Shown: positions 1-64,000 of the stretch, piece by piece
Layout: each line of letters starts with the position of its first letter
Numbering within the stretch: position 1 is the first letter of the stretch
Assembly (NCBI GenBank): GCA_016207245.1
Contig: JACQQA010000005.1
Location: 68-64,067, forward strand
Source of the DNA: Candidatus Magasanikiibacteriota bacterium
GTDB lineage: Bacteria; Patescibacteriota; Patescibacteriia; Magasanikbacterales; UBA922
Reading direction: 5' to 3'
DNA: 64,000 nt
Translations under genes and position numbers: made by a program
The notes under the pieces: generated by a model
Database searches by the model: none
Told to the model about the DNA's origin: nothing
The model's input: the letters and a program-made list of their open reading frames with translations, nothing else

Positions 1-17
1 GGTAAGTATAATTTTAC

Positions 18-46
18 TTGACAAACTTCAACAGGCGCGGTATAGT
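18..46 (+). promoter_or_regulatory. sigma70-type promoter (TTGACA-17-TATAGT) of the LexA-like gene
   Basis: TTGACA at 18-23, a 17-nt spacer, then TATAGT at 41-46. The ATG at 60 leaves a leader of about 7 nt with no Shine-Dalgarno. Confidence 0.6.
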
Positions 47-59
47 AGTATTGTAAAGA

Positions 60-830
60 ATGAATAATATGCATCCAATTCAAGAAAAAATCTTGAAACT
101 AATGGAAACACAAGATGTTTCTAATTTAACATTGCGCGAGATTGCCGTAAAAATTGGCGAATTCGGCAGTCCGCAAAAGATCAAACATCACCTTAATCAA
201 TTGGCGCAGAAGGGTCTGATTAGAATTGATAAGAAAAATAACAAAATTGAAAAGATAAAAGCCGGTGTGAATAAAGAAGGTAGTTTGATTTCTTTGCCTA
301 TCTATGGTTCCGCAAATTGCGGCGAGGCGACTTTTTTTGCCGATGATCATGTTGAGGGGTATTTAAAAGTGAGCGAACATATTTTGGGTAATTTAATAGA
401 TAAGATAAAACACCTTTTTGTTTTACGCGCCGTCGGTACTTCAATGAATCGGGCGGATGTATCGGGTAATGCAATTGAAAATGGCGATTATGTAATTGTT
501 GACAAAGAGGTTGCGGTTCCCAGCGATGGCGATTGCGTTGTTTCCGTCATTGATGGCGTGGCAAACATTAAGAAGATTTACGTTGATAACAAAAATCAGC
601 AATTTATTTTAGTTTCCGAATCAAATCAGGACTTTCCCCCAATTTATGTTCATCGCGTTGACCTGGATAGTTATTTAATGGCCGGTAAGGTCGTGAAGGT
701 TATGAAACAACCGGATGAGTTGGCGGCATGGAGACAAGCCGGTGCTCGTGATATTTTGAAAGATCTCGGGCCGATTTCAAAAGGGGATTACGATTATTAT
801 GAAAATTTATGTTTACAAGAAGCGATGTAA
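60..830 (+). CDS. LexA-like repressor / S24 family peptidase (winged-helix DNA-binding domain plus self-cleaving peptidase domain)
   Basis: 256 aa. N-terminal wHTH (LTLREIAVKIGEFGSPQKIKHHLNQLAQKGLI). C-terminal S24 core with Ser in AVGTSMN and Lys in ANIKKIY. A Cys-Gly (SANCGEA) sits where LexA/UmuD have their cleavage bond. Confidence 0.8.
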   Translation: MNNMHPIQEKILKLMETQDVSNLTLREIAVKIGEFGSPQKIKHHLNQLAQKGLIRIDKKNNKIEKIKAGVNKEGSLISLPIYGSANCGEATFFADDHVEGYLKVSEHILGNLIDKIKHLFVLRAVGTSMNRADVSGNAIENGDYVIVDKEVAVPSDGDCVVSVIDGVANIKKIYVDNKNQQFILVSESNQDFPPIYVHRVDLDSYLMAGKVVKVMKQPDELAAWRQAGARDILKDLGPISKGDYDYYENLCLQEAM

Positions 831-60478: not shown

Positions 60479-60521
60479 GACAAACATAAATGAATTAGGT
60501 GAATTTAAAGTTAGTATATCT

Positions 60522-63500
60522 ATGTATTTTGCCGGTAAGACAAAGAAAGGTTTACTGATAAGCGTAATCACGCTACTGATTTTTATTGAATTTTTTGGTT
60601 TGGTGTTATTGCCAAAAGAAGCGAGAGCCCAAGCGACGGAAGTTTTTGGAGGTCCGGTAGAAGTAAATGTTGCAACCGATGCGCAGGCGGCAAAGAAAGA
60701 AGTAAAAGAAACTGTCGGCGCGCAGTTGTTGGGGAGCGCGCTCGGCGCGCTGGTGCATGGTTTTTCGTATTTTATGCGCAAACTGGCCTACGACTCCGCG
60801 ATGTATGTGGCGAACGGCGGCAAGGGGCAGGGAGCGCTGGCTTTCAAGCAGGGGTTTGGCGATTATTTGCAGACAGTAGCCTTAGATTCGGCGGCTGACG
60901 CTATCGGCGAGCTTGGCAAGCCGTTCGGCCTTAATCTTTGCAAGCCGCCGGATTTGAATTTTCAGGTGTTTTTGCAGATTGGTTTGCGCGGACTATATTT
61001 TGGCGATGCCGCCGGCGGACCTCAGCCGAATTGCAAATGGCAGGATATGAAAGGCGCGTGGGAAAACGCCGATGAGCAATATTTTGGCGAGAACGGCCAG
61101 CTGACGTCGGAAAAAATGTTCAGCAACGCTTTGCGTTTTGAAAATACGGATTTCGGCGTCGCGGTCGGAGCGGTGGAGAGGGTTGACCGCATTCAATCAA
61201 AACAAGTGGCCGGCGCGTCGGCGCAAAGAGCGGAAGGCGAAGGGTTTAAGGCGGCGACGGATTTAATCACCGGCAATGTCAAAACGCCGGCGCAGGTAAT
61301 CAAAGAAGAAACTTATTCAGCCACGAATAAACACCAATCAACTTTGACCGCGAGCCAAGTCGGCGGCATTTACGGCAGCGGCGCTTTGCAGGTAATTCCT
61401 TTGGCCGGGTCGGTTTTTCTTAATACTTTGGCGACCGAGGGCATAAAAAATCTGCAAAAATATTTTCTTTCTTTGTTTGACGAAAGCAGCGGTGGCGGTG
61501 AAGATGCCTCCAGTGTGATGAGTTTTGAATCAGCCGGGTTTCAGCAGAATTTAAAAAAAGCCAAAGAAATTTTTTCCAGCTTTTTGGCGGTTAAGATTGA
61601 TCAAAGAGAAAATTATGATTTGCTGACCGAGTTCACCACTTGTCCGGACACGGCGCCGACAATTCCGGGATTGAACAATTGCGTGATGGACGACAGTTTG
61701 CGCGAAGCCGTGCGCCGCGCCGACACCGGCGAGCCGATGACGATCAGGGAAGCGATGAAAGAAGGATTATTGAAAGGCGATTGGATTTTAGCTTCTCCGC
61801 GCCGAGTGGCTGACAACACGAGTTATGGTTGTTACAAAAACGCTTATTGCTATTCAAATATCCAAAAATTGCGCCGGAGCCGGATTCTGCCGCTGGGTTT
61901 TGAAATCGCGGCTTTGCTGGCCGACCCCGATCATCCGCAGGAAAAATGGACTTTGCAATATGTGGTTGATCATTTTGATGATTGCAAATATTCCAAAGAT
62001 TCCGGCGGTAATGTCATTATTGAACCGGACGCAGGTAATTATCCGTACTGCCGTTTGATTGATCCAAATTGGATTATCAAGTCGCCGGATACGCGGTGCA
62101 ACGGCATGGTTTACAGCTCAAATTTAATTGACCAAACCAGCGGTTTGCGCGCGCAGGAATGCGTTGACGCGCAGACTTGCATTAAAGAAAAAGCCGACGG
62201 CAGCTGCGATTTTTTCGGCTATTGCGCGCGTGAGAAGAAAGTCTGGCGTTTGCCTGGCGAGGCTTGCGAATCATACAACAATACTTGCACCACTTATACA
62301 TCCGGCGATGGGGCATTCGTTTCTTATCTGGCCAAAACCGTGGATTACGGCGAGTGCAATTTTGACAGCGTCGGCTGTTTGGCATATAGCACGGAAAAAG
62401 AAGGCGGCGATTGGGTCGCAAGCATTAACGCTAAAGATAAAGATTACAAAAATTACGGTCGGAACCAGGCGCTGTTTTTCAACGAGAGGATAAAAAATTA
62501 CAGCTGTTCAGCGTCGGATAACGGCTGCAGTGGGTTTTATCTCGGCACTTTAAAAAGCGGAACAACAGACGAATATATAAATAATTATGATAAGCCGATT
62601 TTTGTTAAAAAAGCGCCGGACTATTTGGGCTGTTATGATATAAATCAGAATCAGAATTCACCAATGATTAATTGGCCGCAAACCAAACCGGAGTTGGGCC
62701 AAGTAAGCCAAGACAAGAAATGCGCTGATTTCGCGCAGGTTTGTCTGCCGGAAGAAGTCGGCTGCGATTCTTACACGCCCAAGAAAGGCACTTATTCCAC
62801 GTCGATTCCGGGTATTGCCGGAGAAGAAAATAAATGCGACGCGAGCTGTGTCGGTTACGATACTTTCAAACAAAACGCGACCAATTTCGCGCCATCTGAG
62901 TTCCCGCTTTATTTTATTCCCGATAACGGCAAGTCTTGTCCGGGCGATTACGCGGGGTGCGATGAATTTACCAACATTGACGAATTAGCCAAAGGCGGCG
63001 AGGGGCTTGAATACTACACCGACATTAAATATTGCGAATTGCCGAATGACAAAAATCAGAAAGTATTTTATTCGTGGTATGGCTCAATGAGCGAAGGTTA
63101 TGTTTTGAAATTGCATAAACTGCGGCCGGTCATCGATAAAGATTTGGCATATTTGGAGTCAATGGAAGATAATAATTTAATTGATTTGCAAAATTTAGGC
63201 AACGAAACCGTTGATGATGTTTTTCCTCTCGGCTCGCCGGCTTACGCGACTGATAATCCGGAAAAATTAGCGGAACTTTATACAAGTTGCAATGCCGCCG
63301 GCTATAATAAATTAATCAACGGCGGAATGCCCGGCATTGACGGCACTGCCAGTTTAGACTGCCGCGCGTTGTATGATAAAGATGGCAAAGTTTATTATCG
63401 TATTTTGAAAGATACGATCACCGTGTCGGAAGAATGCCATCCATTGCGAAAAACTACGGCATATTTTTATGATGACGCGGCGCTTACAACATCAGCAACT

Positions 63501-64000
63501 TGCGGAGAAAGAGGCGGGTATTGGAATAGCAACGTTTGCCAGCGCTGTACTAATGGCGGTATTTACAAAGACGGCGCCTGCGTTTATTGGGCGATTGCCA
63601 AACCGGGAGAGTCAGATTCCTGCAAGGGGCCTAGTAGCAATAAAGACGCGTATAACGGTTGCCGCGAATATGTGGGCAATGAGGGCAATGACACAAAGAC
63701 GGTTTTTAATCTGGATTTTGAGCCAATCGGCAATGATTTGAGCAAAGTGAAAGCCGGCTGGTCTCCCGCGGATAAAGTACAGGTGGTGTCCGAATCTGTT
63801 CAGGTTGGCTTGCACTCATTGCAAGTTACCGCCAATGTTAATTACTTAATCGCTTCCAGCACATTAGAAAAAGACGGCTGGTATAAATTATCTTTTTGGG
63901 CGCGGGGCAAGACAAAGTCGCTTGAGGTTATGTTTAGCCAATTTGACGGCGTCAATAAGCCAACCGGCGAGTTTACTTCGTTCGATTACAAAATCAGCAT
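60522..64000 (+). CDS. giant secreted Cys-rich protein, 3'-partial (at least 1159 codons, continues beyond the window)
   Basis: I translated the frame from ATG 60522 by hand and found no stop up to position 64000. It is absent from the ORF track, presumably because no stop codon closes it. N-terminal signal/TM (LLISVITLLIFIEFFGLVLLPKEARA), many Cys pairs, and the last ~100 aa look like a carbohydrate-binding jelly-roll. Confidence 0.8.
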   Translation, partial: MYFAGKTKKGLLISVITLLIFIEFFGLVLLPKEARAQATEVFGGPVEVNVATDAQAAKKEVKETVGAQLLGSALGALVHGFSYFMRKLAYDSAMYVANGGKGQGALAFKQGFGDYLQTVALDSAADAIGELGKPFGLNLCKPPDLNFQVFLQIGLRGLYFGDAAGGPQPNCKWQDMKGAWENADEQYFGENGQLTSEKMFSNALRFENTDFGVAVGAVERVDRIQSKQVAGASAQRAEGEGFKAATDLITGNVKTPAQVIKEETYSATNKHQSTLTASQVGGIYGSGALQVIPLAGSVFLNTLATEGIKNLQKYFLSLFDESSGGGEDASSVMSFESAGFQQNLKKAKEIFSSFLAVKIDQRENYDLLTEFTTCPDTAPTIPGLNNCVMDDSLREAVRRADTGEPMTIREAMKEGLLKGDWILASPRRVADNTSYGCYKNAYCYSNIQKLRRSRILPLGFEIAALLADPDHPQEKWTLQYVVDHFDDCKYSKDSGGNVIIEPDAGNYPYCRLIDPNWIIKSPDTRCNGMVYSSNLIDQTSGLRAQECVDAQTCIKEKADGSCDFFGYCAREKKVWRLPGEACESYNNTCTTYTSGDGAFVSYLAKTVDYGECNFDSVGCLAYSTEKEGGDWVASINAKDKDYKNYGRNQALFFNERIKNYSCSASDNGCSGFYLGTLKSGTTDEYINNYDKPIFVKKAPDYLGCYDINQNQNSPMINWPQTKPELGQVSQDKKCADFAQVCLPEEVGCDSYTPKKGTYSTSIPGIAGEENKCDASCVGYDTFKQNATNFAPSEFPLYFIPDNGKSCPGDYAGCDEFTNIDELAKGGEGLEYYTDIKYCELPNDKNQKVFYSWYGSMSEGYVLKLHKLRPVIDKDLAYLESMEDNNLIDLQNLGNETVDDVFPLGSPAYATDNPEKLAELYTSCNAAGYNKLINGGMPGIDGTASLDCRALYDKDGKVYYRILKDTITVSEECHPLRKTTAYFYDDAALTTSATCGERGGYWNSNVCQRCTNGGIYKDGACVYWAIAKPGESDSCKGPSSNKDAYNGCREYVGNEGNDTKTVFNLDFEPIGNDLSKVKAGWSPADKVQVVSESVQVGLHSLQVTANVNYLIASSTLEKDGWYKLSFWARGKTKSLEVMFSQFDGVNKPTGEFTSFDYKIS

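Follow-up and report, generated by a model that had tools for sequence, protein, structure and literature searches.

The question raised by this locus is what the short repeats are that recur between its genes and, in frame, inside genes for housekeeping proteins. The window analysed here, the whole 64,000-nt stretch, lies on a 160-kb contig of an NCBI metagenome-assembled genome of Candidatus Magasanikbacteria (Patescibacteria, also called Candidate Phyla Radiation, CPR); it has a GC content of ~44% and a strongly positive GC skew, the + strand holds nearly all genes, and ~90% of the DNA is coding. Our catalogue holds 64 elements, which make up 4.4% of the window; they take up 17.7% of its spacers and 2.9% of its coding sequence, and 36 of them are intragenic. 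The original prediction, made from the sequence alone, described at least seven families (A–G) of short palindromic or word-like repeats and likened them to the Rickettsia palindromic element (RPE). The repeats are real, and every interval it listed holds the sequence described for it, but they are of four different kinds and not one RPE-like class: the tagged hairpins of family A, the hairpins of family B that bracket a DUF559 gene, the 24–25-nt and non-palindromic unit of family C, and the short tandem arrays of 7- and 8-nt words that had been split into families D–G. We consider it likely that the genome has been colonised by a mixed population of tiny non-coding repeats of these four kinds, mostly selfish or slippage-driven.

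All the repeat families lie far above chance. Enrichment is strong over shuffles and over other genomes, for which 80 other loci or genomes (1.25 Mb) provided the background rates. The family A motif TGTCATYCCGAGCG has four matches with at most one mismatch (0.03 expected), the A-head YTGTCATYSC has 11 (0.92 expected), and the family C pattern CCTTCGGCNNNGCTCAGGRCAGG has three (0.00 expected). The right half of C is matched eight times in the window with at most one mismatch, compared with nine single-mismatch matches and no exact match in the 1.25 Mb (~0.5 per 64 kb). There are 25 perfect GC-rich hairpins versus ~5.6 in shuffles, and 36 Tandem Repeats Finder (TRF) arrays of period 7, 8, 14 or 16 per 64 kb versus 4.3 in shuffles and 7.0 in the 80 other genomes. 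Logan assemblies from two sequencing runs agree with the window at 100% identity over 4,563 and 1,308 nt, in the repeats as well; this agreement of independent assemblies means that the repeats are not an artefact of a single assembly. Both Logan contigs terminate inside repeat elements, at 42089–42120. No Rfam family was found for any of the repeats.

Family B is associated with a gene of its own. The DUF559 (PF04480) gene at 11520–11900 (+ strand) encodes a Vsr-fold endonuclease whose closest solved structure is 3HRL, an uncharacterised endonuclease-like protein, and it is the candidate autonomous partner of the family. It is flanked on both sides by an inverted B hairpin with a GGGGGTCTCA box, the left terminal inverted repeat (TIR) lying at 11405–11473 (− strand; hairpin plus GGGGGTCTCAG box) and the right TIR at 11898–11940 (+; TGAGACCCCCTCC..CCTCCCCCTACGAGGGGGAGG). 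A palindromic C-like insert is nested in the loop of the left TIR, and the DUF3048 gene upstream takes its stop codon from this same TIR. Homologues of the DUF559 protein with 56–90% identity stand in the same inverted bracket on three other CPR contigs, next to different genes, and the bracket recurs in Portnoybacteria, Anaerolineae and Anabaena, with an inverted match there that is perfect over 25 nt. Related hairpin-plus-box repeats also accompany DUF559 genes as direct repeats in Neisseria, on the downstream side only at ycjD of E. coli, and on the upstream side only on a Synechocystis plasmid. Those of Neisseria gonorrhoeae (L220) are ~110-nt direct repeats of the poly-C hairpin plus TTAGAGAGAGGG / TTAGGGTGAGGGG type on either side of the homologue; one copy of this type sits ~150 nt 3' of ycjD (L222/L223) and is unannotated in RefSeq. 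One contig (L208, 1–2200) carries two DUF559 copies within 2 kb, one cut by the contig end, each with an identical 34-nt hairpin repeat downstream; these genes sit among T4SS-pilin-like genes (T4SS, type IV secretion system), with a 23S_rRNA_IVP family gene close by.

The four B copies that lie away from this gene align to the ends of the DUF559 cassette. The copy in queA (37989–38082, +; residues 296–326, in frame) has the build of a MITE (miniature inverted-repeat transposable element), with a 16-nt spacer between two TIRs. It has a fold of −72 kcal/mol and is missing in the shortest orthologues and in the QueA proteins of T. maritima and B. subtilis, and two relatives (L083 and L087) carry a clear TIR–spacer–TIR unit at the same QueA site. 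In uvrD, a B hairpin lies in frame between inverted ACTCACCCCC/GGGGGTGAGT boxes (45031–45091, +; residues 436–455), a region that is missing in the UvrD proteins of L083 and one other locus, L003. The other two copies are composites of two poly-C hairpins: one, with ACCCCC/GGGGGT boxes, is in frame in a linker of a 1232-residue surface protein (3989–4090, +), and one with the same two hairpins occupies the spacer between tsaC and rsmA (58387–58465, +). TIRs that match a longer, gene-bearing element, as expected of MITEs, were found in family B only; the gene of the parent is DUF559/Vsr-like, with no match to a transposase family. The association of hairpins and gene is observed; from it we infer that the B copies are the ends and the gene-less, internally deleted derivatives of a mobile cassette in whose movement the nuclease plausibly takes part.

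The cassette recalls MITEs and the doublets of repetitive extragenic palindromes (REPs) that go with REP-associated tyrosine transposase (RAYT) genes (REPINs or 'REPtrons'; PMC3116915, PMC3733652), with which it shares a small gene bracketed by hairpins and dispersed gene-less TIR–spacer–TIR copies. It differs in its gene, a Vsr-fold endonuclease and neither a tyrosine (RAYT) nor a DDE transposase, and its mobility is a matter of deduction; no clear target-site duplication was seen, with relatives (73–82% protein identity) too diverged for junctions to be defined. DUF559 belongs to a Vsr-like group that takes in a homing-endonuclease family (PMC3424549, PMC9403480). The EDxHD/Vsr-like homing endonucleases covered there (I-Bth0305I; Taylor et al. 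2011) resemble the window protein in the DUF559/Vsr PD-(D/E)XK fold and in a selfish life style, but are encoded inside group I introns, whereas the window gene is free-standing and flanked by hairpins. None of the papers found to mention DUF559 names it in title or abstract, and PMC3424549 and PMC9403480 describe no hairpin-bracketed DUF559 cassette.

Family A, judged by its tag, stem, loop and tail, is a CGTC/TGTC-tagged REP and a new member of a known superfamily, to which Neisseria dRS3 and Rickettsia RPE-4/6 also belong. Its units consist of (C/T)TGTC, a stem starting with AT(T/C)(C/G)C and a 3' end of CCA (at 59417, 59524 in reverse complement, 60390, and 60415 and 60452 in reverse complement) or CCC (elsewhere). 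Nine units begin with (C/T)TGTC, in agreement with the tag of CGTC-REPs (CGTC, with TGTC and CCTC allowed). Three minimal units (60362–60393, 60415–60441 and 60452–60478), in which an 8-bp stem closes a GAAA loop and the tail is CCA, have the stem and loop of these REPs (8–9 bp with an A-T/T-A start; 4–5 nt), and the longer units agree in part, keeping the stem base ATYCC...GGRAT around 12–25 nt and a second hairpin inside the loop. The family may further resemble dRS3, reportedly ATTCCC-N8-GGGAAT.

Nine of the ten A units are intergenic. A unit with an ATTCC...GGAAT stem, a CCC tail and a nested loop hairpin (7823–7872, +) forms a REP dimer with its inverted partner (7897–7936, −) upstream of rodA/ftsW; another, also with a nested hairpin, lies between dedA and uvrD (43634–43682, −); a dimer with CCA tails (CTGTCATTGCGAG ... 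CTCGCAATGACAG) follows the 3' end of rsmA (59417–59524); and an intergenic cluster of four units (60341–60478) includes the three simple ones, one of them TGTC + ATCCCCTT/GAAA/AAGGGGAT + CCA and two of them TGTC + ATTCCCGC/GAAA/GCGGGAAC + CCA. The sole intragenic unit codes for residues 320–333 of tgt (41088–41129, −); its 5' end TGTCATCCCGA, the first 11 nt, is also found in the 82%-identical TGT gene of L083, so the insertion is old.

In the classification of Di Nocera, De Gregorio & Rocco (2013; PMC3733652), CGTC-1 is Neisseria dRS3, and CGTC-1 and CGTC-4 of R. conorii are RPE-6 and RPE-4. Intragenic copies are reported there from Opitutus terrae, R. conorii and Thioalkalivibrio, the hosts including uvrB of R. 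conorii and uvrA of the other two, and a dedicated transposase is not known for the group. Family A shares with these REPs the unpaired (C/T)GTC tag, the 8–9-bp AT-starting stem, the 4–5-nt loop, the CCA tail, the inverted dimers, the clusters, the occasional intragenic copy and the absence of a dedicated transposase nearby. It differs in its host, CPR not being among the five phyla reported, in the extra hairpin or element held by most loops, and in having just one of ten units inside a gene. The RPE analogy of the original prediction may thus be literal for family A; as a label for palindromic selfish DNA it does not hold for the whole set.

Family C has a non-palindromic unit that is 24–25 nt long (24 nt by tandem period) and stop-free in five of six frames on direct reading; its consensus, from 126 metagenome copies among the matches listed, is C-CCTTCGGC-TNC-GCTCAGGGCAGG-C. 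Exact matches occur in at least 120 unrelated metagenome contigs with GC contents of 0.31–0.70, where uniform chance would, on our own rough estimate, yield few at most. Among the 126 listed copies, eight have a CGTC-REP head no more than 60 nt away. We had expected frequent self-nesting in the metagenomes and found two nested and three tandem copies among the 126; split, nested and tandem copies are present both there and in the window. A search of the literature for peptides that such repeats typically encode, one of which (LRQAQGK) is present in the window QueA, gave no match.

The unit behaves as a discrete block of eight codons. Exactly eight residues are added in QueA after RVRF in 6 of 120 orthologues and after LVQF in three of the 120, with two further split copies including that of the window, and in RsmA after AKP in 9 of 119, with one more doubled. 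Of the 14 window copies, 13 are intragenic, and 12 of those 13 read in the sense orientation (three being degenerate). Two tandem 24-nt units lie in the surface protein gene (3915–3962, +; PSAGSGQAPSAGSGQG), one unit in the DUF3048 gene (10961–10984, +; PFGSAQGR), where it abuts a D word array, and one in mltG (36524–36547, +; PSASLRTG), where relatives lack it. The first queA copy (37200–37224, +; TLRQAQG) is missing in 111 of 120 orthologues; the second (37533–37583, +) is interrupted behind GCTCA, where 24 nt are nested in it (PHSASS|LRGDSVEP|GQA), at the site where three orthologues have the unsplit unit. The rsmA copy (58981–59016, +; residues 167–178) is split by 11 nt and sits where nine orthologues carry the exact unit. 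In the Wzy_C (O-antigen ligase family) gene, an antisense unit (51485–51509, −) pairs with one split by a 26-nt insert (51675–51723, +); the resulting 240-nt segment (51485–51723) was considered as a MITE insertion and rejected, as the Pfam Wzy_C domain spans it. Three copies are C-like: a degenerate 21-nt insert in tgt (41745–41765, −; ASASSTG), missing in the 82%-identical L083 gene; a 21-nt insert or small hairpin in uvrD (44537–44557, +; RLSGGQA), missing in all four relatives compared; and a degenerate split insert in tsaC (57892–57927, +; PSSRFGQDCGVA), which aligns to an 11-residue gap in PDB 9d3h. A partial copy lies in a hairpin between convergent genes (6266–6283, −).

By description, C is closest to the small dispersed repeats (SDRs) of Nostocaceae, reportedly presented by Elhai et al. 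in 2008 as gene-less dispersed units of 21–27 nt that insert into palindromes, hairpins and other repeats, sometimes in nested fashion. SDRs are reported from Nostocaceae only (PMC5861425), whereas a CPR genome and metagenome contigs of widely different GC content carry C. A gene for a 68-residue GIY-YIG nuclease in a further relative (L085, 4740–5160) was checked as a partner for C and found not to be one. That gene stands beside a tRNA gene, the end of which (~28 nt) is duplicated beyond the insert, and the insert is another small nuclease cassette.

The words that had been listed as families D–G form tandem arrays, and the tandem excess is specific to periods 7 and 8, as periods 9 and 12 are at background. 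Relatives are likewise rich in arrays (21–47 per 64 kb), and the words common to them and the window include ATTGTTAA, AAGATAC and CAGATAA. Word sharing between arrays amounts to 94 similar pairs versus 21.6 at random; this pair count was the only test used, single-linkage clustering at one mismatch being too permissive (it gave one giant AT-rich cluster). Spacers, 10% of the DNA, hold 15 of the 36 arrays. Across the families, some listed members (20140, 22935 and the weak TRF rows) are probably chance, and CTGT words were ruled out as LexA boxes on inspection, with no inverted half-site.

Many arrays are inverted pairs with long arms. In the spacer between two divergent genes, TGCGAAA(T) arrays have 34-nt arms that are 97% complementary (6804–6890); AATTAAC arrays cover the yidC stop codon and the following spacer (48623–48690), GTAGGAC-type arrays are intergenic (50729–50795), and AAAGGCY nonamer arrays fill the spacer between groES and groEL (53372–53492). 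E words (CAGAATA/CAGATAA) separate the divergent tgt and C39 peptidase genes (42089–42120, +), and in two further spacers they are broken by a GC hairpin (1901–1966, +) or belong to the second copy of a 50-nt repeat (59541–59585, +). The two copies of that repeat (1931–1980 and 59548–59597) are 78% identical, join E words to the DnaA-box-like TTATCCACA / TTATCCCCA, and stand upstream of genes for small membrane or secreted proteins (2060–2569 and 59650–60276). An array of the octamer ATTGTTAA abuts the start of the Vut_1 gene (39831–39870, +), with the same word at the same place in L087, and D words run over the C-terminus of prfB (RTHHHITT and the stop codon) into the spacer 5' of tsaC (57672–57712, +).

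Within genes, the surface protein has ACAGAAT, CAAGATA and ACAAAAC heptamer arrays in frame (3636–3796, +), IQDTSNKIQ being among the encoded peptides, and the DUF3048 gene has D words (ATCACNNC) at 10985–11011 (+). Those in the C39-like peptidase gene (42669–42701, +; DHSITPSPHHA) add 5–9 residues relative to relatives, and those in rsmA (59131–59178, +; DHCITTSLHHD) add five relative to PDB 6IFS. The 33-nt D arrays of these two unrelated genes are 83–86% identical, from which it follows that words also spread between loci. The Wzy_C gene carries a segment (51089–52200, +) with three TTATCTC arrays (51089–51119, 51530–51588 and 52040–52070), a ATTGTTAA array (51617–51648) and an E-word array broken by a GC hairpin (52127–52200); the translations examined, of the second, of the ATTGTTAA array and of the hairpin-broken array, are hydrophobic and membrane-like. 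F words (TTAACAAT) in tgt (41694–41738, −) make up a segment missing in canonical 360-residue TGTs.

Other arrays turn over without a change in length. At 41430–41468 (−) in tgt, an 8/16-nt word array has GTTTGTAA-type units in the window, and L083 has a perfect (GTGTGCAA)x4.2 array over the same codons and at the same length; such a change of word is a sign of concerted evolution. The rsmA segment at 58744–58851 (+) combines GAGATAR words (LEIRGDREINRDK) with CAAGATA words (KIQDTSNKIQK), and its LEIRGDREINR and KIQDTSNKIQ peptides bring no net insertion relative to B. subtilis KsgA; the CAAGATA words fall in a loop with heptad periodicity in many of the 119 orthologues. The RsmA loop between WGNAL and YKV has 21–22 residues in 102 of 119 orthologues and is heptad-periodic with another word in most lineages: residue identity is 36% at lag 7 and ~5% at other lags, and 35 of the 119 loops are strongly periodic versus 0.9 in shuffles. 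The pattern of the RsmA loop and the tgt array is concerted evolution of an in-frame, non-triplet repeat, which we attribute to slippage, short-tract conversion or both. The prediction that the copies add residues therefore stands for many of them and fails for the E and inverted-G segments of rsmA and the octamer array of tgt. Over-represented heptameric tandem repeats are known elsewhere (Mrazek et al. 2007; cyanobacterial heptamers; Xanthomonas and Nostoc GGGAATC), and according to PMC4692102 they share with D–G the 7-nt period, the enrichment in spacers, some inverted pairs and an explanation by slippage. The window arrays differ in including octamers, in the many coexisting words that recur at unlinked loci, and in that about half lie in frame inside genes and turn over at constant length.

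Alignment against orthologues and solved structures supports the prediction of in-frame repeats in tgt (four elements), queA (four), rsmA (two insertions and two replacements), uvrD (three), mltG and tsaC, at sites where orthologues and structures have none, and relatives likewise confirm the inserts in mltG and the C39-like peptidase gene. The 11 residues in tsaC lie at a site that had not been listed, and the copy assigned to ruvA (19070–19101) is upstream of its start codon, RuvA aligning without an insert. The placement of copies inside open reading frames (ORFs) does not extend to nine of ten A units and three of six B copies, which are intergenic or at gene ends. No element was found in gyrA, ftsH, smc, groEL, nusA or rpsA.

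Comparison of 120 QueA and 119 RsmA sequences, the check that had been proposed, gave scattered presence and absence at fixed sites. QueA length varies from 352 to 416 residues within one clade, and its loop after TLEGVA, of 21–61 residues, is occupied by B MITEs in some lineages and by an A dimer (L085) or word arrays in others; a single loop with different types of element points to a permissive and not a targeted site. After SAFxGD, 19 of 120 QueA orthologues have a 30-nt element, (D)RL(A/V)G(R/H)S(P/L)(S/G)(E/D)G, and the window protein has a 14-residue insert between SAFA...SAFA at nearly the same place. The inserts had been suggested to lie in surface loops. The QueA AlphaFold model (28 sequences; mean predicted local distance difference test score, pLDDT, 52) was too poor to place them, and RsmA was used (119 sequences; mean pLDDT 89.6): its three coil regions of lowest confidence are the C, D and GAGATAR segments, and the fourth segment, CAAGATA, is a confidently modelled surface helix.

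The best-surviving alternative is that nothing moves and that all families were written in place by error-prone replication or repair, with primer slippage, synthesis by snap-back or template switch, and the correction of quasi-palindromes as candidates in a DNA-repair-poor CPR lineage. It would account for loops overwritten at unchanged length, for the frequency of inverted pairs among the arrays, with complementarity up to 97%, for the perfect palindromes of uvrD, for A and B copies that are heterogeneous at the centre, and for a window with no transposase. We hold it to be improbable, because the same 23–25-nt C sequence stands in at least 120 unrelated contigs and enters different sites of different proteins as exact blocks of eight residues, A copies fit a consensus published across phyla, B copies correspond to the termini of a gene cassette present in different genomic contexts, and 33-nt D arrays are 83–86% identical between unrelated genes.

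Somewhat less probable still is that the repeats are kept as useful and that the in-gene copies were selected, whether as RNA or DNA hairpins with a part in termination, processing or supercoiling, as word arrays that bind proteins or belong to promoters, as signals for DNA uptake by the competence machinery, or as phase-variable 7/8-nt tracts by which genes are switched off and on. Most spacers do hold hairpins or arrays, some directly 5' of start codons, the ATTGTTAA array keeps its place upstream of Vut_1 in two genomes, and a palindrome in uvrD is conserved. Against such roles, the elements are patchy among close orthologues, one loop can hold different elements, and the hairpins are not followed by T-tracts. 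Known uptake sequences (uptake signal sequences, USS, and DNA uptake sequences, DUS) consist of one lineage-specific 9–12-nt motif that recurs on both strands about once per kb; the commonest non-tandem 12-mer occurs four times in 64 kb and falls short of that density. Gain or loss of one 7- or 8-nt unit would shift the frame, but the in-gene arrays have a constant length in nearly all orthologues.

A third proposal, that the in-gene elements are removed from the RNA like introns or from the protein like inteins, so that the mature proteins are normal, appears very unlikely. The DUF559 fold takes in a homing-endonuclease family of group I introns, and many inserts form strong hairpins; however, all in-gene copies are in frame and stop-free, which splicing would make needless, the same elements occur in spacers, no Rfam intron family is matched, and elements of 21–94 nt are below the size of known self-splicing introns and inteins as generally understood. 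The reading that low-complexity sequences resemble one another by chance, or that the assembly is at fault, for which the short, degenerate copies and a few probably fortuitous members might speak, is refuted by the strong enrichment over shuffles and other genomes, by identical independent assemblies and by the same elements in orthologues from many other assemblies.

Colonisation by several kinds of small repeat would work as follows. Kinds A, B and C would spread by copy-and-insert events catalysed in trans, for B plausibly by the DUF559 nuclease, with C entering as a discrete block of eight codons, sometimes into itself or into hairpin loops. Words would arise and be homogenised by replication slippage, short-tract gene conversion or both, by which an array can swap its word at unchanged length. 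With ~90% of the DNA coding, many insertions would land in genes. Purifying selection would purge copies that shift the frame, bring in a stop codon or strike a constrained residue, and would leave survivors in frame and in spacers, surface loops, linkers and membrane segments, mainly of dispensable or tolerant proteins, while a few permissive loops would gather different types of element across lineages. Most likely, the peptides that the elements encode are neutral passengers.

Several observations weigh against this account. No transposition event, near-identical pair of empty and filled sites or clear target-site duplication was found, the closest relatives having 73–82% protein identity, and our search for closer relatives for an empty-site comparison found none, the best matches being at 73–75% (QueA), 71–79% (RsmA) and 82% (TGT). 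No enzyme for A or C was found in the window, and this clade of DUF559 proteins has no known catalytic activity. In-place slippage is insufficient for words that recur at unlinked loci and in other genomes. The sense orientation of 12 of 13 intragenic C copies, compared with ~60% expected from the open frames, may reflect more than a passive filter. A palindrome in uvrD (45362–45400, +; CGCCGTAGAGACGCAC AGCA GTGCGTCTCTACGGCG) is in frame with a perfect 16-bp stem, and its site holds a perfect 12-bp version in L085 and none in L083; perfection in two diverged lineages hints that selection, or some process of correction, maintains it.

In-frame tolerance of such elements is not new in principle, given RPEs, the intragenic REPs of PMC3733652, and the intragenic enterobacterial repetitive intergenic consensus (ERIC) sequences, Coxiella QMITE1 and Anabaena MITEs covered by a 2024 review (PMC10969869); the RPE, put forward as the only well-known precedent, is thus one of several. 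RPE-1 (Ogata et al. 2000, as covered in PMC10969869) is ~150 bp long and encodes a conserved peptide. Like RPE-1, the window elements are selfish repeats that a reduced genome tolerates in frame within unrelated housekeeping genes, where segments exposed at the surface are their probable sites. They differ in being 21–100 nt long, of several unrelated kinds and far denser (36 intragenic in 57 kb), and none is a palindromic unit of ~100–150 bp with a conserved peptide. The literature searched, on CPR together with palindromic, MITE or REP elements, gave no link between such elements and Patescibacteria. On that basis, what seems to be new is that they occur in a CPR lineage and at such density, together with the clade-wide pattern of presence and absence, the link between poly-C hairpins and DUF559, the 24-nt unit that crosses phyla and the constant-length turnover of heptamer loops.

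Other features of the window lie apart from the repeats. Between the Wzy_C gene and groES, ~760 nt of GC-rich DNA hold no gene (52314–53073); this stretch, with paired hairpins at 52636–52686, has an RNA fold z-score of −4.2 (551 nt, minus strand) and matches no Rfam family at threshold; it may be a divergent structured RNA. Another gene-free stretch, of ~910 nt, lies 5' of smc (30403–31315), and the Acido-Lenti-1 RNA motif was found at 31013–31058 (−; 45.9 bits, gathering threshold 37), with a weak second copy at 31220–31265 (+). A gene for a LexA-like repressor (LexA_DNA_bind plus Peptidase_S24) overlaps one for a PemK/MazF-type toxin (60–1162) and is followed by a PRiA4_ORF3 family gene (1237–1872). 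Next to uvrD, an ORF without a Pfam match overlaps an N6/N4 DNA methylase gene (45873–47592), and the two are probably a restriction-modification pair. A long ORF begins at 60523 and continues past the window end (60523–64000), which accounts for the seeming gap in ORFs there.

Tentatively, and with more doubt than confidence, we suggest that DUF559 genes bracketed by hairpins (poly-C hairpin plus GGGGGT/TTAGGG box) form a family of autonomous mobile cassettes in CPR, Chloroflexi, Cyanobacteria and perhaps Proteobacteria, whose B derivatives settle in loops, and that these, together with C and the words, constitute a shared 'micro-mobilome' that rewrites permissive housekeeping loops of ultra-small bacteria; the heptad-periodic RsmA loop, different in almost every lineage, would be an example. 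Through the DUF559–hairpin link, the function of a widespread domain becomes testable and one class of poly-C hairpins gains a suggested parent. The 24-nt C unit and the turnover of words at constant length give concrete examples of very small elements that spread. For annotation, the inserts lengthen proteins, create spurious small ORFs and break assemblies. A filter of selection, and not targeting, appears to decide which loops fill, and the window serves as a naturally made map of the sites that are permissive in TGT, QueA, RsmA, UvrD, MltG and TsaC. A second lineage with a reduced genome, unrelated to Rickettsia, tolerates selfish DNA in its housekeeping genes, and at a much higher density.

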